DNA of 64,000 nucleotides, taken from NCBI RefSeq assembly GCF_056746865.1, contig NZ_CM163382.1. One strand, given 5' to 3'. Shown piece by piece: positions 1,997 to 14,162 of this stretch. The notes beneath the pieces were generated by a model that saw only the letters and a program-made list of their open reading frames with translations, was not told where the DNA came from and searched no databases. The position numbers were made by a program, and so were the translations under genes. Numbering within the stretch: position 1 is the stretch's first letter; each line of letters opens with the position of its first letter.

Positions 1997-2497
1997 CTGC
2001 TCTCCAATGACTAGTCTAAAAACTAGTATTAAGACTATCACTTATTTAAGTGATATTGGTTGTCTGGAGATTCAGGGGGCCAGTCTAATCGACCACCAAT
2101 AGTCCGGGTATTGCTAATGGCAAATTCATATGGGATCGGTTCTTCAAGCCCTTCAAAACCACTACCTATAGCAAAAACCTCATTTTCCATTGTAACGCCC
2201 ACGTACTGACTGAATGGAATACTGGTTGTAGCCGAAAATATCTTGTCCATTCCTTCATAACCGCTGTATCCCCATTGCTCTCCTAATGGTTCATCAAAAA
2301 AAAAGGAAACAAAATTTTTTCTTGCCAGATGTTCTTCCATTACAGGGTCTATATCATCTCGCTTTTCTCGTGTAGTTATATAAATATAACCAGTGTCTCT
2401 TACTGCAACACCATTAATATAAAACCCTTTGAATATTTCATTGTACTCATCTTGAGTAATAATCATGTTTTTAATCTCATATTATTTTCATTTGTTT

Positions 2498-3906: not shown

Positions 3907-3942
3907 TTCATTTCCTTAGTTATCACAATTATCATCATAGCT

Positions 3943-4512
3943 ATCTATAAACGTTAGTTTCCATAATATGCTATCCGTGTGCCCACTTTCCTTTAAATTA
4001 ACTGCTGGCCCGGGAGGCTATTCAAACGCCATTGAATCAAAGAGGACATTCCAGGCATTACCATCATAAATAGCAGCTCCTCTGGAACCACAAACCATCA
4101 TCACGGTCCCATCGGGTGAAACATCAATTCTTTTACTTAAAACGGCCACTTCAGGAGGGACGGGTTTATGTTTTGCATGCATGGCAAGCACCAGTTTGTC
4201 ATCTTCCAGCACCCAGATGCCATAATCACTGGCACACCAGAGACGTCCATCAAACCATCCCATGTCGAGGAATGGCATGGTCATTCCACCATGCGTAATT
4301 TGTGTCCATTGTTCATTGCGACCCTTCCATATAGCACCGTCAAAATCAGCAATATAAACAAATCCGTCACCGGCACAGCAAACTGTGTACAGAAGTTTAT
4401 TTGTCGGAAAAGGGAGTTGTTTCCATTGCTCACCATTAAAGTGATAAACCGTTCCCGTTCCGCCCACTGCATACATATCCGATTCGGAAAAACCAGATAA
4501 ATCTCGGAATCG
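3943..4512. repeat. Direct repeat copy 2, about 570 bp: 3' half of paralog C plus its 3' flank
   Basis: Near-identical to 2796..3365. Confidence 0.85.
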
Positions 4513-5058
4513 ACTTCTGGTTATTGCTTCTACCTTCCTATCTAACAATCCATCGGGGACAGGCAGGTATGTAGAATGTTCCCGCCAAATTTGGTGATCA
4601 ACACGTTTGTATATTCTGAAACCACTACCGATAGCGTAAACACTGTTTTCAATTCGTACTACTTTTATTATAACGGAAAACATATCGATAGAACCTGGTA
4701 TGAGTATATTTATACTTTCTTCTACTCCTTTGTATACATCTTCTTTATAACTCATAACATCACGGTCCTGACTGACCATAACATATTCGGTCTGAGATGG
4801 GGGCCAACCAGAAGATATAGTCATCAGAGATATCCCTGTTGCGCGACGACCATATATGCGATATTTTTTGGAGAGGGTAAACGTAATGGAAATTAATCTC
4901 TTTTCAGGTGGGTAAAAAGGGTTTTCATATTCGGCATGCTCCTCATCTACCACTTCAATCAATGAAAGACCTACTTTTCCATGCTCGTAACCATAGGTGC
5001 AGTCATATATATAAAAGCCTTTGAGATATTTCTGATACGATTCTATATCTATGATCAT
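4018..5058 (-). CDS. Hypothetical protein, paralog C (346 aa) with beta-propeller-like repeats
   Basis: Intact 346-aa ORF; C-terminal half identical to paralog B, N-terminal half diverged; low GC. Confidence 0.75.
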   Translation of the reverse strand: MIIDIESYQKYLKGFYIYDCTYGYEHGKVGLSLIEVVDEEHAEYENPFYPPEKRLISITFTLSKKYRIYGRRATGISLMTISSGWPPSQTEYVMVSQDRDVMSYKEDVYKGVEESINILIPGSIDMFSVIIKVVRIENSVYAIGSGFRIYKRVDHQIWREHSTYLPVPDGLLDRKVEAITRSRFRDLSGFSESDMYAVGGTGTVYHFNGEQWKQLPFPTNKLLYTVCCAGDGFVYIADFDGAIWKGRNEQWTQITHGGMTMPFLDMGWFDGRLWCASDYGIWVLEDDKLVLAMHAKHKPVPPEVAVLSKRIDVSPDGTVMMVCGSRGAAIYDGNAWNVLFDSMAFE

Positions 5059-5083
5059 TTATCACCTCAAATATCTTCATCGT

Positions 5084-5383
5084 TTATAACACCCCCATCA
5101 CCTGCATTGATTTTTGCAGAGTTAAATCACCACAGGTATAAGCGTCTTGGTAAGCTTTATCCAGTTGCGCTTTCAAACAAGATTTATCACAACCGTACAT
5201 TAATGCAACCTCATCAATTACCATACATCTGGCATCTTTATAACTCATTTCTTTTCCAAAATGCTTTTCTTCTATTAGAGTGCCTGTAGCTGAGTGTAAT
5301 GCACCATGTGAACCAGTACGATTGTCTTTTCCTTCCAGACAAATTGTAGGCGCTTTGCCTTCGGTATATTCCCCCCCCAGCAC
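5084..5383 (-). CDS. Hypothetical small protein (99 aa), tightly coupled upstream of paralog C
   Basis: ORF ends 26 bp before the paralog C start; GTG start codon inferred; a run of 8 G on the coding strand sits at codons 3-5; no recognisable homology. Confidence 0.35.
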   Translation of the reverse strand: MLGGEYTEGKAPTICLEGKDNRTGSHGALHSATGTLIEEKHFGKEMSYKDARCMVIDEVALMYGCDKSCLKAQLDKAYQDAYTCGDLTLQKSMQVMGVL

Positions 5384-5751
5384 TTTCTTGTTGGATATTT
5401 GCTACGGGGCATTCTTTATATTAATTTTTCTTCCTTATGGAGTATCTCTGTTTGACACTTTAAAGTCTCTATGAGAATTATAAGATTTTTTTTAAAATAA
5501 TACGTTTTCAGATTTAGCAACAGGATTTTCACTCATACGATTAATATACGATATTTTAATCTCAAAAATATATTTGGCTGGTGAAGCTATCTGGGGTGTA
5601 TATTCACACCACATATATTATCAAAAGGCAGTTACGCTACCGCCATACCCTGATAAAACTCACCATCTGCACGAAACGGATTTTACGCTTTTTCTTCCGG
5701 CGAAATATCAAATTCTCAATTCAAATAATATCTATTGCGTTATATGACCTA

Positions 5752-7200
5752 TCACTCCCTCTCCGGCAGCACAATCACAAACCTTGTTCCTCGCGCATCT
5801 GACGTTACCGCAACTGTGCCTTTATGCGCGACAACAATCGATTTCACTATCGCCAGCCCAATGCCGCTACCTTCGCCTTTTCGCTGGCGGGAAGGATCAA
5901 CGCGGTAGAAACGGTCAAACAATCGCGGTAAGTGTTCGGGCGCAATGGGCGTACCGGGGTTTTCGACGGTAACTTGCACCTGATGATCGACCGCCTGGCA
6001 GCGTACTACAATAGCCTCTCCGGGTGGCGTATAACGCAGGGCATTAGAAAGCAGGTTGTTTAACGCCCGACGCAGCATCAGCGGATCGCCCGCAACCTGA
6101 CACTCGTCACCAACAAACCGCAACTCCACGCCGCGATCTTCCGCTAACGCCTCGAAAAAATCGAACACTTTGCCGACTTCATCCGCCAGGTTGAGCATTT
6201 TCTTTTCGGGGATTAACTGGTTGTTATCGGCCTGGGCGAGAAACAACATATCGCTGACCATTTTCGCCATTCGCGTCAGCTCTTCGAGATTAGAGTAGAG
6301 CACATCTTCCAGCTCCTTCTGGCTGCGTGACTGGCTGAGGGCGATTTCGGTTTGCGTTATGAGATTCGTAATTGGTGTACGAATTTCGTGAGCGATATCC
6401 GCTGAGAAATTGGACTGGCGAGTAAAGACATCCTCAATACGCTCGATCATATGGTTGAACGACAGTACCAGCTGTTCCAGCTCAATCGGCACGGTCTGCG
6501 GGTCAAGGCGAACGTCGAGATCTTTCGAGGTGATATTCTGGATTTGACGGCTGACGCTGCGGATCGGCGCGTGACCTTTATGTACCGCCAATAGCACGAT
6601 AAAGACGATCAGGATGCTGATGATCGATGCGGTCATAATAAGTTTATTCATCAAATCATTTATGTAATGAAGATGAAAATCGATCGAAAGCGCGATGTAG
6701 AGCGTATAAATCGGTTTGCCGTCCACCAACGGGCCAACCGGCAAGTTAATCATCCGCCAGTTGCTGTGTTCCATATGCCCGTGACCGTGGCCCGGCATCA
6801 TCATTGTCGGGCCGGAAAGGAGATACACCTCGCCGCCCCGCGCGTCTTTATCGGGTATGGCATCACGTGCAAACTCGCGGATATCGGGCGCACCGGGGGA
6901 GTGATATACCGTTTTACCGTGGCTATCTGCCAGGGAGATCAACACATTGGAATAACCACTGACAATATCTTCCAGCGTCATTAAGCGTCGGGCTTGCGTT
7001 TCGTCAGGGTGATTAAGTACCCGTTCAAGTGTGGCGCTAATTTCTTTTAAATCATTAATATCCTGCTCGGCAAAATGCACTTTTACCGAGTGGATCATTA
7101 TCCATGCAAAGGCGAAAAACGCCGCGATGGTGGCGAGGCTGATAAAAAAGGTCAGGCGGGTTGCCAGCGAAAACGGGCGCTGAAATGGCTTACTGACCAT
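5752..7200 (-). CDS. cusS: Copper/silver-sensing histidine kinase CusS
   Basis: Translation matches CusS ([16 protein letters not shown]...; periplasmic sensor, HAMP, HisKA and ATPase regions); start set at the internal Met of the 486-aa ORF. Confidence 0.92.
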
Positions 7201-7873
7201 CCGGCACCTCAAGCATGTAACCCACGCCGCGCACGGTTTGAATCAGCTTCGGCTCAAAGTCGTTGTCGATTTTGCCACGCAGCCGCTTCACCGCCACATC
7301 AATGGCGTTAGTGTCGCTGTCGAAATTCATGTCCCACACCTGCGAGGCGATAAGCGAGCGGGGCAGCACTTCGCCCTGATGGCGAAGGAAAAACTCCAGC
7401 AGAGTAAACTCTTTACTGGTCAGAGTGATGCGCGTACCGCTGCGGGTGACTTTGCGGCTGACGAGATCGACCATCAAATCGGCAACCTGAAACTGACTTT
7501 CGATAATCACCGCCGCCCCGCGCCGCAGTAATGTGCGCACCCGCGCCAGCAGTTCAGCAAAAGCGAATGGCTTCACCAGGTAGTCATCTGCCCCCAACTC
7601 CAGCCCCTTGACGCGATGTTCAATGGTGCCAAGCGCGGTAAGCAACAGAATCGGCATCCCTTTATTGGCGGAACGCAACATACGCACGATATCCCAGCCG
7701 TTCACGTCTGGCAGCATAATATCGAGGATTATCAGGTCATAATCACCGGTCATCGCCAGATGGTAGCCATTCAGCCCGTTGTCGGCCAAATCGACCACAA
7801 AACCGGCTTCGGTTAACCCTTTGGTCAAGTATTCTCCGGTTTTCTTTTCATCTTCGACAATCAACAGTTTCAT
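7190..7873 (-). CDS. cusR: Copper-responsive response regulator CusR (OmpR family)
   Basis: 227-aa [23 protein letters not shown]...; receiver plus winged-helix domains; overlaps the cusS start by 11 bp. Confidence 0.95.
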
Positions 7874-7938
7874 ATTTCCTCCGCATGTTGCCCGGGCAAT
7901 TCTAGAGTAGCGGGATCAGATGGCAATCGCTTATTGGC

Positions 7939-7960
7939 AAAATGACAATTTTGTCATTTT
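7939..7960. promoter_or_regulatory. CusR box palindrome in the cusR-cusC divergent promoter region
   Basis: Perfect inverted repeat aaaatgacaa-tt-ttgtcatttt between divergent cusR and cusC. Confidence 0.7.
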
Positions 7961-8029
7961 CCTGTCACCGGAAAATCAGAGCCTGGCGGGTAAAGTTGGC
8001 GACATAAAATCACCAGAAATTATGTGCCT

Positions 8030-9412
8030 ATGTCTCCTTGTAAACTTCTGCCATTTTGTGTGGCCCTTGCGCTAACCGGTTGTTCACTGGCACCGGATTA
8101 TCAGCGCCCGGCAATGCCCGTGCCGCAGCAGTTCTCACTCAACCAGAACGGCCTGGTTAACGCAGCAGATAACTACCAGAACGCGGGCTGGCGCACCTTT
8201 TTTGTTGATAATCAGGTGAAGACGCTGATTAGCGAGGCGCTGGTGAATAACCGGGATTTGCGCATGGCGACGCTGAAAGTGCAGGAAGCGCGGGCGCAAT
8301 ATCGTCTGACCGATGCCGACCGCTACCCACAGCTCAATGGCGAGGGCAGCGGCAGCTGGAGCGGCAATCTTAAAGGCGATTCAGCCACGACGCGGGAGTT
8401 CTCGACTGGCCTTAACGCCAGCTTTGATCTCGATTTTTTCGGTCGCTTAAAGAACATGAGCGAAGCCGAGCGACAAAATTATTTAGCCACTGAGGAAGCC
8501 CAGCGCGCGGTGCATATTCTGCTGGTTTCTAATGTCGCGCAAAGCTATTTCAATCAGCAGCTGGCGTATGCGCAATTGCAAATCGCCGAAGAAACGCTGC
8601 GTAATTATCAGCAGTCATATGCGTTTGTCGAAAAACAACTGTTGACCGGTAGCAGCAATGTTCTGGCGCTGGAACAGGCTCGCGGGGTGATTGAAAGTAC
8701 CCGCAGCGACATCGCTAAACGTCAGGGGGAACTGGCGCAGGCGAATAATGCATTGCAACTGTTATTGGGAAGCTACGGCAAGCTGCCGCAAGCGCAGACA
8801 GTAAACAGCCACAGCCTGCAAAGCGTTAAATTACCGGCGGGCTTGTCGTCGCAAATTTTATTGCAGCGCCCGGATATTATGGAAGCTGAACACGCGTTAA
8901 TGGCGGCTAATGCCAATATTGGTGCTGCACGTGCAGCATTTTTCCCGTCTATCAGCCTGACCAGCGGAATATCGACCACCAGCAGCGATCTGTCGTCATT
9001 ATTTAACGCCAGCAGCGGGATGTGGAATTTTATTCCCAAAATTGAGATCCCCATTTTTAATGCCGGACGCAACCAGGCCAATCTGGATATCGCCGAAATT
9101 CGCCAGCAGCAGTCGGTGGTGAATTATGAACAGAAAATCCAGAACGCCTTTAAAGAAGTGGCAGATGCGCTGGCATTACGTCAAAGCCTGAACGATCAAA
9201 TTAGCGCCCAGCAGCGTTATCTGGCGTCGCTGCAAATTACTTTGCAACGGGCGCGGGCATTATATCAGCACGGCGCGGTAAGTTATCTGGAAGTGCTGGA
9301 TGCTGAGCGTTCTTTATTTGCAACCCGACAAACTTTACTTGACCTGAATTATGCCCGTCAGGTTAATGAAATTTCTTTATATACCGCCTTAGGCGGCGGT
9401 TGGCAGCAATAA
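8030..9412 (+). CDS. cusC: Outer-membrane efflux lipoprotein CusC
   Basis: Translation MSPCKLLPFCVALALTGCSLAPDYQRP... with a lipobox; TolC-like channel. Confidence 0.93.
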   Translation: MSPCKLLPFCVALALTGCSLAPDYQRPAMPVPQQFSLNQNGLVNAADNYQNAGWRTFFVDNQVKTLISEALVNNRDLRMATLKVQEARAQYRLTDADRYPQLNGEGSGSWSGNLKGDSATTREFSTGLNASFDLDFFGRLKNMSEAERQNYLATEEAQRAVHILLVSNVAQSYFNQQLAYAQLQIAEETLRNYQQSYAFVEKQLLTGSSNVLALEQARGVIESTRSDIAKRQGELAQANNALQLLLGSYGKLPQAQTVNSHSLQSVKLPAGLSSQILLQRPDIMEAEHALMAANANIGAARAAFFPSISLTSGISTTSSDLSSLFNASSGMWNFIPKIEIPIFNAGRNQANLDIAEIRQQQSVVNYEQKIQNAFKEVADALALRQSLNDQISAQQRYLASLQITLQRARALYQHGAVSYLEVLDAERSLFATRQTLLDLNYARQVNEISLYTALGGGWQQ

Positions 9413-9435
9413 TTTTTAACTCCAGGAGAGAATAA

Positions 9436-9768
9436 ATGAAAAAAGCACTGCAAGTCGCAATGTTCAGTCTGTTTACCGTTATTGGCTTTAATGCCCAGGC
9501 TAACGAACATCATCATGAAACCATGAGCGAGGCACAACCACAGGTCATTAGCGCCACCGGTGTGGTAAAAACCATTGATCTGGAAAGCAAAAAAATCACC
9601 ATCCACCACGATCCAATTACCGCGGTGAACTGGCCGGAGATGACCATGCGCTTTACCATCACCCCGCAGACGAAAATGAGTGAAATTAAAACCGGCGACA
9701 AAGTGGCGTTTAATTTTGTCCAGCAGGGCAACCTTTCTTTATTACAGGATATTAAAGTCAGCCAGTAA
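9436..9768 (+). CDS. cusF: Periplasmic copper chaperone CusF
   Basis: 110-aa ORF MKKALQVAMFSLFTVIGFNAQANEHHHETMSEAQPQ... Confidence 0.95.
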   Translation: MKKALQVAMFSLFTVIGFNAQANEHHHETMSEAQPQVISATGVVKTIDLESKKITIHHDPITAVNWPEMTMRFTITPQTKMSEIKTGDKVAFNFVQQGNLSLLQDIKVSQ

Positions 9769-9783
9769 CCCAGGTTTAATGAG

Positions 9784-11007
9784 ATGAAAAAAATCGCGCT
9801 TATTATCGGCAGCATGATCGCGGGCGGTATTATTTCTGCGGCAGGTTTTACCTGGTTTGCAAAGGCGGAACCGCCCGCAGAAAAAACGTCGACCGCAGAA
9901 CGTAAAATTTTATTCTGGTACGACCCGATGTATCCCAATACGCGGTTCGATAAACCAGGTAAATCGCCGTTTATGGATATGGATCTGGTGCCGAAATATG
10001 CCGATGAAGAGAGTTCTGCGTCTGGTGTGCGCATTGACCCGACTCAGACGCAGAATCTGGGGGTGAAAACGGCTACCGTCACGCGCGGGCCGCTGACTTT
10101 TGCCCAGAGTTTCCCGGCGAATGTCAGTTACAACGAGTATCAGTATGCCATTGTGCAGGCTCGCGCTGCCGGGTTTATCGACAAGGTGTATCCGCTTACC
10201 GTGGGCGATAAAGTGCAAAAGGGCACACCGCTTCTCGACCTGACCATTCCCGACTGGGTGGAAGCGCAGAGTGAGTATTTACTGCTGCGCGAAACCGGCG
10301 GTACGGCGACCCAGACTGAAGGCATTCTTGAGCGGCTGCGACTGGCGGGAATGCCGGAGGCGGATATTCGCCGCCTGATCGCCACGCAAAAAATCCAGAC
10401 TCGCTTTACGCTCAAAGCGCCCATTGATGGCGTGATCACCGCGTTTGATCTGCGCGCGGGAATGAATATCGCCAAAGATAATGTGGTAGCGAAAATTCAG
10501 GGTATGGACCCGGTGTGGATCACTGCCGCGATCCCGGAGTCCATCGCCTGGCTGGTGAAAGATGCCTCGCAGTTTACGCTCACCGTTCCGGCGCGACCTG
10601 ATAAAACACTCACCATTCGCAAATGGACCCTGCTACCCGGCGTGGATGCCGCGACCCGCACGCTGCAGCTGCGTCTGGAAGTCGACAACGCCGACGAGGC
10701 GCTAAAACCGGGAATGAACGCCTGGTTGCAACTCAACACCGCCAGCGAACCGATGCTGCTCATTCCGTCACAGGCGCTGATTGATACCGGCAACGAACAG
10801 CGGGTGATTACCGTTGATGCCGACGGACGCTTTGTACCGAAACGCGTTGCCGTTTTCCAGGCATCGCAAGGCGTCACCGCGTTACGCTCTGGTCTGGCGG
10901 AAGGTGAAAAGGTGGTTTCCAGCGGCCTGTTCCTGATTGATTCCGAAGCCAATATTTCTGGCGCACTGGAGCGGATGCGCTCTGAAAGTGCTACCCATGC
11001 GCATTGA
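9784..11007 (+). CDS. cusB: Membrane fusion protein CusB
   Basis: 407-aa ORF matches CusB. Confidence 0.95.
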   Translation: MKKIALIIGSMIAGGIISAAGFTWFAKAEPPAEKTSTAERKILFWYDPMYPNTRFDKPGKSPFMDMDLVPKYADEESSASGVRIDPTQTQNLGVKTATVTRGPLTFAQSFPANVSYNEYQYAIVQARAAGFIDKVYPLTVGDKVQKGTPLLDLTIPDWVEAQSEYLLLRETGGTATQTEGILERLRLAGMPEADIRRLIATQKIQTRFTLKAPIDGVITAFDLRAGMNIAKDNVVAKIQGMDPVWITAAIPESIAWLVKDASQFTLTVPARPDKTLTIRKWTLLPGVDAATRTLQLRLEVDNADEALKPGMNAWLQLNTASEPMLLIPSQALIDTGNEQRVITVDADGRFVPKRVAVFQASQGVTALRSGLAEGEKVVSSGLFLIDSEANISGALERMRSESATHAH

Positions 11008-11018
11008 GGGAATAGCCA

Positions 11019-14000
11019 ATGATTGAATGGATTATTCGTCGCTCGGTGGCGAACCGTTTTCTGGTGCTGATGGGCGCGTTGTGTCTGAGTATCTGGGGCA
11101 CCTGGACCATCATTAACACGCCAGTGGATGCACTGCCGGATCTCTCTGATGTACAGGTGATTATTAAAACCAGCTATCCCGGTCAGGCACCGCAAATCGT
11201 TGAAAATCAGGTGACTTATCCGCTAACCACCACTATGTTGTCGGTGCCTGGCGCGAAGACTGTGCGCGGTTTCTCGCAGTTTGGCGACTCTTATGTGTAT
11301 GTCATTTTCGAAGATGGCACCGATCCATACTGGGCGCGCTCGCGGGTGCTGGAGTACCTCAACCAGGTACAGGGTAAGCTGCCTGCGGGAGTCAGCGCCG
11401 AGCTGGGGCCAGATGCCACGGGTGTTGGCTGGATCTATGAATATGCACTGGTGGATCGCAGCGGTAAGCACGATCTTGCCGATTTACGCTCATTGCAGGA
11501 CTGGTTTCTCAAATATGAGCTGAAAACCATTCCTGACGTTGCGGAAGTGGCGTCGGTAGGCGGTGTGGTGAAAGAGTATCAGGTGGTTATCGATCCTCAG
11601 CGCCTGGCGCAATATGGCATCAGTCTCGCCGAAGTAAAAAGCGCGCTGGATGCTTCAAACCAGGAAGCGGGCGGTTCGTCGATCGAACTGGCGGAAGCGG
11701 AATATATGGTGCGCGCCAGCGGCTATCTGCAAACGCTCGACGACTTTAATCACATCGTTTTAAAAGCCAGTGAAAATGGCGTGCCCGTTTATCTGCGCGA
11801 TGTTGCGAAGGTCCAGATTGGCCCGGAGATGCGCCGGGGCATTGCCGAACTGAGCGGCGAAGGCGAAGTGGCGGGCGGGGTGGTGATCCTGCGCTCCGGC
11901 AAAAACGCCCGAGAAGTGATCGCCGCCGTGAAAGACAAACTGGAAACGCTGAAAAGTAGTCTGCCGGAAGGCGTGGAGATAGTTACAACATACGATCGCA
12001 GCCAGCTCATTGACCGCGCCATCGACAACCTCAGCGGCAAGTTGCTGGAAGAGTTTATTGTGGTGGCGGTAGTCTGTGCGCTGTTTCTCTGGCATGTGCG
12101 CTCGGCGCTGGTGGCGATTATTTCGTTGCCGCTGGGGTTGTGTATTGCTTTTATTGTCATGCACTTTCAGGGACTGAACGCCAATATTATGTCGCTGGGC
12201 GGCATTGCGATTGCCGTCGGGGCGATGGTCGATGCCGCTATCGTCATGATCGAGAATGCGCATAAACGGCTGGAAGAGTGGCAGCACCAGCATCCTGACG
12301 CCACGCTGGATAATAAAACGCGCTGGCAGGTGATCACCGATGCGTCTGTTGAAGTGGGTCCGGCGTTGTTTATCAGTCTGCTGATTATCACGTTGTCGTT
12401 TATCCCGATCTTCACCCTGGAAGGGCAGGAAGGGCGTCTGTTTGGCCCGCTGGCGTTCACCAAAACGTATGCGATGGCGGGTGCGGCGCTGCTGGCGATC
12501 ATAGTGATCCCTATCCTGATGGGTTACTGGATCCGTGGCAAAATTCCGCCAGAAAGCAGTAACCCGCTCAATCGCTTTTTGATTCGTGCTTATCATCCGC
12601 TGTTGCTGAAAGTACTGCACTGGCCAAAAACCACGCTGCTGGTGGCAGCGCTTTCGGTGCTGACGGTTCTCTGGCCGCTCAATAAAGTTGGCGGGGAATT
12701 TTTACCGCAGATCAATGAAGGCGACTTGTTGTATATGCCATCGACGCTGCCGGGGATTTCCGCAGCAGAGGCGGCGAGTATGCTGCAAAAAACCGACAAG
12801 CTGATTATGAGCGTACCTGAAGTGGCGCGGGTATTTGGCAAAACCGGGAAAGCGGAAACCGCCACCGATTCTGCTCCGCTGGAGATGGTAGAAACGACCA
12901 TCCAGCTTAAGCCACAAGATCAGTGGCGGCCAGGCATGACGATGGACAAAATCATTGAAGAACTGGATAACACCGTGCGTCTGCCGGGGCTGGCGAATCT
13001 GTGGGTGCCGCCAATTCGTAACCGTATCGATATGCTCTCAACCGGCATTAAAAGCCCTATCGGCATTAAAGTTTCCGGCACTGTGCTGGCGGATATCGAC
13101 GCGATGGCGGAGCAAATTGAAGAAGTGGCGCGAACGGTGCCAGGCGTAGCTTCTGCGCTTGCCGAGCGTCTGGAAGGTGGGCGCTATATTAACGTTGAGA
13201 TTAACCGTGAAAAAGCCGCGCGTTACGGTATGACGGTGGCGGATGTGCAATTGTTTGTGACATCTGCGGTGGGCGGGGCGATGGTTGGCGAAACGGTGGA
13301 AGGGATTGCCCGTTATCCAATTAATCTGCGTTATCCGCAAAGCTGGCGCGATAGTCCGCAGGCGCTGCGCCAGTTGCCGATTCTGACGCCGATGAAGCAG
13401 CAAATCACCCTGGCAGACGTGGCTGACGTTAAAGTCTCTACCGGACCGTCGATGCTGAAAACCGAGAATGCGCGCCCGACGAGCTGGATTTATATCGATG
13501 CCCGCGATCGTGACATGGTGTCGGTGGTTCACGATCTGCAAAAAGCGATAGCTGAAAAAGTGCAGTTAAAACCGGGCACCAGCGTGGCATTCTCCGGGCA
13601 GTTCGAGCTACTGGAGCGCGCCAACCATAAGCTGAAACTGATGGTGCCGATGACGTTGATGATCATCTTCGTGCTGTTGTATCTGGCGTTCCGTCGGGTG
13701 GGCGAAGCGTTGCTGATTATCAGCAGCGTACCGTTTGCGCTGGTGGGCGGCATCTGGTTGCTGTGGTGGATGGGCTTTCATCTTTCCGTGGCGACGGGCA
13801 CCGGTTTTATTGCCCTTGCCGGGGTTGCCGCCGAATTTGGCGTGGTGATGCTGATGTATTTACGTCATGCCATAGAGGCCGAGCCGTCGTTGAATAATCC
13901 GCAAACATTCAGCGAGCAGAAGCTGGATGAGGCGTTGTATCACGGCGCTGTCCTGCGCGTGCGCCCGAAAGCGATGACGGTGGCGGTGATTATCGCTGGT

Positions 14001-14162
14001 CTGCTGCCGATTCTGTGGGGAACGGGAGCAGGTTCAGAGGTGATGAGCCGGATTGCCGCGCCGATGATTGGCGGCATGATCACCGCGCCTTTGCTATCGC
14101 TGTTTATTATCCCGGCGGCGTATAAGCTGATGTGGCTGCACCGACATCGGGTACGGAAATAA
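11019..14162 (+). CDS. cusA: RND copper/silver efflux pump CusA
   Basis: 1047-aa [30 protein letters not shown]...; heavy-metal-efflux RND family. Confidence 0.97.

Follow-up and report, generated by a model that had tools for sequence, protein, structure and literature searches.

Whether a small open reading frame (ORF) that opens on a homopolymeric run is a switchable gene, or is what remains of a larger one, is the question raised by the locus considered here. It lies in a window of 64,000 nucleotides (contig NZ_CM163382.1 of NCBI RefSeq assembly GCF_056746865.1) that belongs to an Escherichia coli chromosome and carries cusRS and cusCFBA at 5752-14162. The island to the left of the cus genes has 40.7% G+C, against 51.6% for the whole window, and contains, on the minus strand, an ORF of 99 amino acids with a GTG start and a run of eight G residues (G8) near its 5' end, followed closely by a longer gene, paralog C. 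A first inspection of the DNA letters by themselves (the sequence-only reading) had located both the ORF and the run, which are indeed present in the ORF list and in the sequence, and had proposed a two-gene module, for example a toxin fragment with its cognate partner, subject to slipped-strand phase variation. The analysis reported here leads elsewhere. The ORF is the C-terminal fragment of a type VI secretion system (T6SS) PAAR-like/Tox-GHH2 nuclease effector of the Tse7 family, and it is very probably a non-functional, decayed remnant (hereafter the stub) that would go untranslated beside retained genes of immunity type, for which a protective role would follow from their position.

Identification of the stub rests on profile and protein comparisons, and the earlier statement that it had no recognisable homology did not survive them. 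A Pfam match to Tox-GHH2 (PF15635) was obtained with E = 3.7e-6 and a score of 27.7 over residues 5-76, although the match is incomplete (model positions 31-120 of 122), and the RefSeq entry for the identical ORF, WP_001305542.1, is named "HNH/endonuclease VII fold toxin-2 domain-containing protein". An exhaustive phmmer search of 1.84 billion representative proteins with the 99 residues gave 138 relatives, most of them 400-575 amino acids long, to whose extreme C-terminus the ORF aligns; in P0014 (521 amino acids), residues 408-507 match it at 72% identity. Full-length relatives have a PAAR-like (DUF4150) N-terminus and a Tox-GHH2 C-terminus. The ORF represents about the last 100 residues of effectors of ~520-550 amino acids (homologues of 521-575 amino acids, with ~408-507 aligned), and a PAAR-like domain is not in the same polypeptide, which starts at about residue 408 of P0014 or of the second effector of a Salmonella enterica cluster (530 amino acids; Salmonella effector 2). 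The first 4 and the last 12 residues are non-native, with ~83 native codons between them, and the GTG start would be an accidental in-frame codon.

The signature of the Tox-GHH2 family consists of s[AGP]HH and HxxxH motifs (Zhang et al., PMC3482391). In the subfamily to which the stub belongs, s[AGP]HH falls inside a CCPGQTGHH block that is invariant in 12/12 full-length C-termini, and in an alignment against those 12 homologues the 99-residue ORF has no counterpart to it. The HxxxH column, conserved across all full-length homologues aligned (n=12), is retained, as are the conserved columns Y..AP.IC.EG...GSH...H and C...C..QL...Y. The closest relatives (Salmonella effector 2, P0014 and that of E. 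whittamii) carry an insertion of ~30-45 amino acids between GHH and the rest of the domain, and because an insertion of ~40 amino acids splits the domain, Pfam left the GHH block of the intact Salmonella effector unaligned; the missing motif was therefore established by multiple alignment of full-length C-termini and not by Pfam. A sequence search of the PDB with the intact Salmonella effector gave nothing meaningful. With both the delivery domain and the catalytic block gone, the stub would be neither secreted nor catalytic.

Comparison with intact genes also shows how the reading frame was damaged. The stub and the 3' end of the intact E. whittamii gene have almost the same DNA, but in the latter the tract is G6 and in frame (TGG GGG GAA, Trp-Gly-Glu), so that by DNA alignment the G8 of the window is a +2 frameshift; Salmonella and metagenome homologues have GGGGAAAA at the tract position. 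The ancestral tract is thus best read as G6, an internal codon run of a long gene. A -1 shift farther along, visible also as a gap against the E. whittamii DNA and documented by protein forms P0012 and P0179, exchanges the native acidic tail ending in NSAKINAGDGGVINDEDI and a stop for one ending in TLQKSMQVMGVL and a stop, while the alternative frame at the 3' end of the stub reads FNSAKINAGDGGVINDEDI before its stop; the ancestral-frame stop, TGA at 5069-5067, lies in the spacer before paralog C. A second G run near the 3' end is G4 instead of G5 in some assemblies, giving a tail of ...QVMGCYKR (protein forms P0003 and P0152).

At the upstream edge, homology to effector genes begins ~30 nt upstream of an ATG at 5412-5410, which corresponds to an internal Met codon in the intact effector (MPRSKYPTRKCWG...) and is out of the ORF frame in the G8 allele. 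An in-frame TAA (5418-5416) precedes this ATG by two codons (the translation runs ...HKEEKLI, stop, RMPRSKYPTRKCWGG), all frames further upstream are rich in stops, and the same peptide is found inside long proteins among the homologues. ATG 5412 had been entertained as the ancestral start, where a Salmonella protein record begins, and was ruled out by the uninterrupted Salmonella ORF of 530 amino acids, to which the Met used as a start by some gene callers (MPRYKSPKKECWG...) is internal. In that Salmonella locus (L004, 8780-10372) only the last 123 codons of the 530-codon PAAR-like/Tox-GHH2 ORF are recorded as a gene; short database "Tox-GHH2" proteins starting MPR.K.P can accordingly be under-called full-length effectors. 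A 92%-identical copy of the stub on NZ_CP095532.1 (L009, strain GN06156, a 14.6-kb linear "plasmid unnamed1") was set aside as a noisy duplicate of the chromosomal cusS region. That record holds frameshifted cusS and cusR fragments and has the appearance of a long-read contig from this region that was never corrected, not of a plasmid.

By duplex energies with the anti-Shine-Dalgarno sequence, no Shine-Dalgarno is found at either possible start of the stub, the values being -0.7 kcal/mol at GTG 5383 and -0.9 at ATG 5412, whereas those of paralogs C and B reach -6.9 and -6.0. The Shine-Dalgarno of paralog C lies 5 nt upstream of its start, and since paralog C has this strong ribosome-binding site of its own, translational coupling to the stub is unnecessary. 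A terminator-like hairpin with a T-run after cusS argues against read-through from cusRS into the remnant. A consensus scan of 4900-5900 found no sigma-70-like promoter on the coding strand, and Rfam, over the same interval, gave only a sub-threshold match to BsrC (E = 0.7), which was rejected. The features discussed here and below are collected in Table 1.

Table 1. Positions of the stub, its motifs and the other elements of the island, in window coordinates.
Feature	Position	Strand	Remarks
Terminator-like hairpin and T-run	5627-5644	minus	108 nt past the cusS stop
Upstream tail of effector homology	5384-5445	minus	From DNA alignments; homology fades beyond ~5440
99-amino-acid ORF	5084-5383	minus	GTG start, from the ORF list; stop TAA = 5086-5084
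Effector C 3' remnant	5084-5383	minus	Residues 5 to ~87 in the ancestral toxin-domain frame
G8 homopolymer (C8 on plus)	5371-5378	minus	Tract read from the sequence
HxxxH (H-G-A-L-H, H26-H30)	5294-5308	minus	Retained second Tox-GHH2 signature motif
-1 frameshift site	5121-5126	minus	TTTAAC here, TTTAAAC in the allele behind P0179
Second G run (G5)	5092-5096	minus	Near the 3' end of the 99-amino-acid ORF
Spacer between stub and paralog C	5059-5083	minus	Holds paralog C Shine-Dalgarno GAGGTG (5068-5063)
Paralog C, 346 amino acids	4018-5058	minus	Predicted beta-propeller; RefSeq name WD40/YVTN/BNR-like
Effector B remnant	3907-4017	minus	111 nt between paralogs C and B
Paralog B, 346 amino acids	2866-3906	minus	Immunity-type beta-propeller
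Effector A remnant, 104-amino-acid "PAAR-like domain" ORF	2498-2812	minus	RefSeq name; ~91 native codons
Paralog A, 336 amino acids when intact	120-2466	minus	Immunity-type; split into 2038-2466 and 120-752
A9 run (T9 on the coding strand), inside paralog A	2296-2304		149/153 genomes identical over an 89-nt segment

The homopolymer itself takes in the third base of codon 2, all of codons 3 and 4, and the opening base of codon 5 of the ORF. It is the sole G/C run of eight or more within the window, where 1.8 would be expected from mononucleotide shuffles (mean) and 1.1 from a first-order Markov model; as composition predicts about one to two such runs, a single G8 is not in excess. Tract alleles were determined with queries carrying 40-nt flanks in a set of 5,426 complete E. 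coli genomes, of which 152 have the locus, with G8 in 139 (91%), G7 in 8 and G9 in 5, although homopolymer error may account for some of the ±1 differences in long-read assemblies. Since these counts sum to 152, no other position varies within the 88 nt of tract and flanks. When protein forms were counted by contig in a collection of 15 billion proteins, the G8 form of 99 amino acids was found on at least 1000 contigs, the G9 form (109 amino acids) on 188, G7 (103) on 90, G6 (108) on 64 and G5 (100) on 8. The NCBI Prokaryotic Genome Annotation Pipeline (PGAP) calls each tract form as a coding sequence with a different start, G9 being called from ATG 5412 to give 109 amino acids. With G6 or G9 the ORF shares the frame of that ATG, and the resulting products of 108-109 amino acids have neither GHH block nor PAAR-like domain, nor is there a ribosome-binding site for them. 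The listed assemblies of laboratory derivatives of one strain are all G8; these are consensus assemblies and too few for a rate. Indel rates in G:C runs of 8 nt exceed per-site substitution rates by orders of magnitude, and such a rate would explain 13 variants with zero flanking single-nucleotide polymorphisms without selection.

The genes downstream of the stub place it in a larger structure. Across its full 346 residues, paralog C shares 68% identity with a Salmonella gene that begins 9 nt past an intact effector. Its AlphaFold2 model, built from a 45-sequence alignment, consists of all-beta propeller repeats (predicted local distance difference test 93.9, predicted template modelling score 0.92). 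Foldseek with this model returned only generic WD40, tectonin and Ycf48 propellers from the PDB and, among the top 50 from AFDB50, mainly uncharacterised homologues, proteins of E. coli 042 and UMN026 included; P. aeruginosa Tsi7 was not visible among those 50. Pfam gave just an insignificant Tectonin match to paralog C, a PDB sequence search with it gave nothing meaningful, and a scan of six island proteins against NCBIfam assigned no family. From its conserved position next to the effector, paralog C is presumed to be the cognate immunity protein of effector C, the gene of which the stub is the end. The spacing of the two, put at 26 bp by the sequence-only reading, is close as claimed, but the true spacer from the ORF stop to the paralog C ATG (5058-5056) is 25 bases, 26 being the gap between the end coordinates of the two features. 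The idea of a toxin fragment with its partner is likewise borne out to the extent that a Tox-GHH2 fragment stands beside this homologue of a Salmonella effector-adjacent gene. As a working two-gene module the pair does not hold up, because the stub lacks the delivery domain, the GHH block and a Shine-Dalgarno and contains two frameshifts.

Remnants of two further effectors precede the two other paralogs. The short segment between paralogs C and B is composed of a 53-nt leader, repeated before the PAAR-like ORF, then the first 19 nt of a PAAR-like gene (ATGGAAACTAACGTTTATA, 3964-3946), and, in its last ~39 nt, an acidic C-terminal tail (...DSYDDNCDN and a stop) together with the ribosome-binding site of paralog B; it is a second effector gene, nearly all deleted. 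The PAAR-like ORF belongs to another gutted gene, effector A, 2.3 kb downstream of the stub. Its N-terminus follows the effectors of 530-538 amino acids up to ...PGFQKG and then diverges, and this 5' remnant is joined out of frame to its own extreme 3' end, immediately ahead of paralog A. Paralogs B and C are mostly 57-72% identical over their first 540 nt (one 60-nt bin is at 25%) and 97-100% identical over the last ~450 nt, or 52% and 99% in the corresponding protein halves, a mosaic that suggests recent gene conversion of the C-terminal half and possibly marks the divergent N-terminal half as a specificity region. Paralog A is interrupted in the window by an IS3-family element at 768-2041 with two overlapping transposase ORFs, presumably IS2-like, and is intact (336 amino acids) in strain WP8-S17-ESBL-12. 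Some other strains have paralog C split by IS5, or have lost the stub and paralogs B and C to an IS21 element.

Two of the three paralogs, B and C, are intact in the window while three effector genes are truncated or internally deleted, and the locus reads as an effector-less orphan immunity array adjoining cusS. The island lies between cusS and insertion sequence elements, and no vgrG or DUF2169 gene was found in the ~6 kb examined beyond it. The stub occurs once per chromosome, at one locus, with no second copy at ~>=65% DNA identity; among the island-bearing genomes listed, the PAAR-like fragment likewise has none at that identity. An intact partner gene was therefore not detected down to this level. 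The segment from cusS to the stub (5445-5751) is specific to island-bearing strains. More widely, the gap between cusS and nfrB is variable; where the island is absent, it holds other immunity-type genes, for example SMI1/KNR4 (loci L010 and L011), and in island strains a SUKH-3 immunity-type gene lies further left, between ISAs1 copies.

Members of the same immunity family are paired with live effectors elsewhere, in the Salmonella L004 locus and in E. coli ETEC6335. In the former the order is VgrG, DUF6484, DUF2169, a gene for 347 amino acids, an effector of 538 amino acids (PAAR-like and Tox-GHH2) and a gene for 342, continuing with the intact 530-residue PAAR-like/Tox-GHH2 ORF, whose last 123 residues are homologous to the window ORF, a gene for 346 amino acids and a HEAT-repeat gene. 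PAAR-like genes only 60-80% identical to the island fragment occur in 13 complete E. coli genomes, and ETEC6335, the one of these that was examined, carries a complete armed cluster (L014, 2421-12917) adjoining yafV-ivy-fadE. It is made up of VgrG, DUF6484, DUF2169, a DUF4150 effector, a PAAR-like/GHH effector of 547 amino acids that contains GKGCCPGQTGHH, a gene for a 342-residue "WD40/YVTN/BNR-like" propeller directly after it, and a HEAT-like gene.

A history of the locus may be proposed from these comparisons. The intact effector has PAAR-like/DUF4150 at its N-terminus and a Tox-GHH2 HNH/EndoVII DNase at its C-terminus, with a long linker between them; in armed strains it would ride the VgrG spike with the help of DUF2169 and kill neighbours by DNA damage, the beta-propeller of ~340-346 amino acids encoded directly downstream protecting the producer. 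The island would once have held three such effector-immunity pairs in tandem. All three effectors have since been gutted, C keeping its last ~100 codons, A ~91 codons of its 5' end, and B 19 nt of the 5' end and ~30 nt of the 3' end, while the immunity genes kept their own ribosome-binding sites. G8 would be an expanded internal Trp-Gly-Glu codon run whose length drifts by replication slippage under no selection. The synteny suggests that the retained beta-propellers give protection, as orphan immunity proteins, from the Tox-GHH2 effectors of T6SS-armed Enterobacteriaceae.

Several observations weigh against so complete a loss of function. PGAP annotates the 99-residue ORF as an ordinary coding sequence and not as a pseudogene, and it is open, at 99, 103, 108 or 109 amino acids, in all common tract alleles. 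Its HxxxH/Cys-rich half could conceivably keep some function, such as binding the immunity protein, and a perfect -10 hexamer, TATAAT at 5482-5477, makes transcription of the region possible. The G run, moreover, is non-identical in 13/152 genomes and the A9 run within paralog A in at most 4/153 (Fisher p = 0.026), a difference that fits relaxed constraint but is compatible also with a faster-switching tract. The corresponding proposal, close to that of the sequence-only reading, is a phase-variable contingency gene in which slippage would switch the small protein on and off, or exchange the 99-residue GTG form for the 108/109-residue ATG forms, and so yield a heterogeneous toxin-related product or affect the downstream immunity gene through translational coupling. 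It is very unlikely. A tract that differs in length among isolates while being the only variable site in 88 nt, the existence of G5, G6, G7 and G9 protein forms in the large collection, the joining of the ORF to the ATG 5412 frame by G6 and G9, and an excess of variation over an A9 run of the same island all speak for it, and the length polymorphism (G5-G9) is indeed the part of the earlier claim that stands. No tract length, however, restores the PAAR-like domain or the GHH block or gives more than 108-109 amino acids; a TAA lies in frame just before ATG 5412; neither start has a Shine-Dalgarno, and that of paralog C leaves nothing for coupling to do. In relatives, moreover, the tract encodes Trp-Gly-Glu in the interior of a ~1.6-kb gene and is not an evolved 5' switch, G8 is dominant among complete genomes, some of the ±1 variants may be long-read error, and the laboratory-derived clones are uniformly G8. 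Neutral slippage in a pseudogene is the simplest reading of the variation and fits better than phase variation. In a more elaborate combination of the two, the dead fragment would be translated at a low level, the G run toggling it between the 99- and 108/109-residue forms, and would bind the immunity propeller as a decoy, stabiliser or titrator; this is extremely unlikely, but if true, the toggled fragment would tune free immunity protein and act as a phase-variable modulator of orphan immunity against T6SS attack.

Other uses of the stub would not require its peptide to work in place. It might be a spare part, an orphan toxin cassette in which a silent stub and its immunity gene serve as a recombination substrate, to be grafted onto a full-length effector to change the toxin type. 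The order of C-terminal toxin fragment followed by cognate immunity gene is that of classic orphan modules, and the near identity to the E. whittamii 3' end would suit such an exchange; yet no intact family gene to receive the stub was detected in the island-bearing genomes listed, at ~65% or more DNA identity, the stub has two frameshifts, on the 5' side its homology stops within the toxin domain, short of the GHH block, and the destruction of three effectors in different ways looks like purging rather than storage, so that little credence is given to this explanation. Alternatively the DNA or RNA, and not the peptide, could be under selection, the old effector 3' end holding the promoter or 5' untranslated region of the immunity gene. 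Each gutted effector does keep a few dozen bases before its immunity gene, the Shine-Dalgarno included, the terminator-like hairpin past cusS implies that the array needs a promoter of its own, and the TATAAT is found upstream of the stub. That hexamer sits upstream of the effector-derived sequence, however, and not within it, the consensus scan gave no sigma-70-like promoter, and effector B was cut to ~58 nt with paralog B kept, so a long stub is not generally needed. Retention as regulatory DNA is accordingly considered unlikely, and the stub is taken, as above, to be a decayed effector end.

On its own, the 99-residue ORF is an ordinary decayed fragment whose domain is already labelled in databases. 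Its significance lies partly in a correction, in that the RefSeq label "toxin-2 domain-containing protein" covers a fragment without catalytic motif or delivery domain; with neither the s[AGP]HH motif nor the PAAR-like domain that define the family, the stub ought not to be classed as a toxin. Partly it lies in the locus, a tidy example of effector purging with immunity retention in which three tandem T6SS nuclease effectors were destroyed in three different ways, while armed copies persist in Salmonella and in other E. coli. ETEC6335 and the twelve other genomes with similarly divergent PAAR-like matches are potential attackers, and the orphan array could be a defence against them; if the retained genes do protect, the locus is a candidate determinant of survival in T6SS warfare among gut Enterobacteriaceae.

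Several known systems offer a measure of what the locus is. Poly-G/C phase variation is known in contingency loci of Neisseria, Haemophilus and Campylobacter, where the ON length yields a complete functional protein. The G8 near the 5' end of the ORF and its differing length between isolates resemble such loci, but every tract length here leads to a product without the catalytic block or a ribosome-binding site. The closer relation is to Tse7-Tsi7 of P. aeruginosa (PA0099-PA0100). Tse7 combines DUF4150 with a C-terminal Tox-GHH2 domain bearing an S(A/G/P)HH motif (Hachani et al., PMC4067218), the same PAAR-like/DUF4150 and Tox-GHH2 architecture as the intact relatives of the stub, and the vgrG1b/Tse7-Tsi7 cluster is of DUF2169 "synteny type A" (PMC11883445; PMC11872809), to which the intact Salmonella and E. 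coli clusters are alike in their VgrG, OB-fold/DUF6484, DUF2169, thiolase-like, effector, immunity and HEAT-repeat genes. A structural match to Tsi7 spans residues 2-340 of its partner (PMC11872809), a span comparable in size to the 346-residue paralogs, the likeness being one of length. Tse7 homologues have 315-386 amino acids and the enterobacterial effectors 520-550, and the window ORF differs from Tse7 in comprising only the last ~100 codons, without PAAR-like domain or GHH, with two frameshifts, and outside a T6SS cluster.

Orphan modules provide the remaining comparison. For orphans of Rhs and contact-dependent inhibition (CDI) systems (Jackson 2009 and Koskiniemi 2014, as cited in PMC5361080), the account given there is of C-terminal toxin fragments without promoter or start, cognate immunity gene next, that arise by C-terminal displacement, features that the stub recalls; in that account their toxin domain is intact and some conserved core sequence is retained, which allows re-activation by recombination, whereas the stub is cut inside the toxin domain and frameshifted, with no intact homologue detected in the same genome. 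In T6SS auxiliary clusters of V. cholerae, what remains of displaced effectors is their 3' ends and their immunity genes, forming "strings of orphaned 3' regions", or orphan modules (Kirchberger et al. 2017, PMC5361080). The island shares with these arrays the tandem immunity genes without effectors, the leftover effector 3' ends, and the resemblance of the immunity genes to intact pairs of other strains, which indicates horizontal origin. The V. cholerae arrays belong to a functional T6SS cluster, at its 3' end and after the live displacing effector, whereas the array in the window adjoins cusS, with no T6SS genes in the flanks examined and all three effectors dead. Set against these systems, the stub is a decayed member of the Tse7-type PAAR-like/Tox-GHH2 family, and the locus is one of a known kind, an orphan immunity array.

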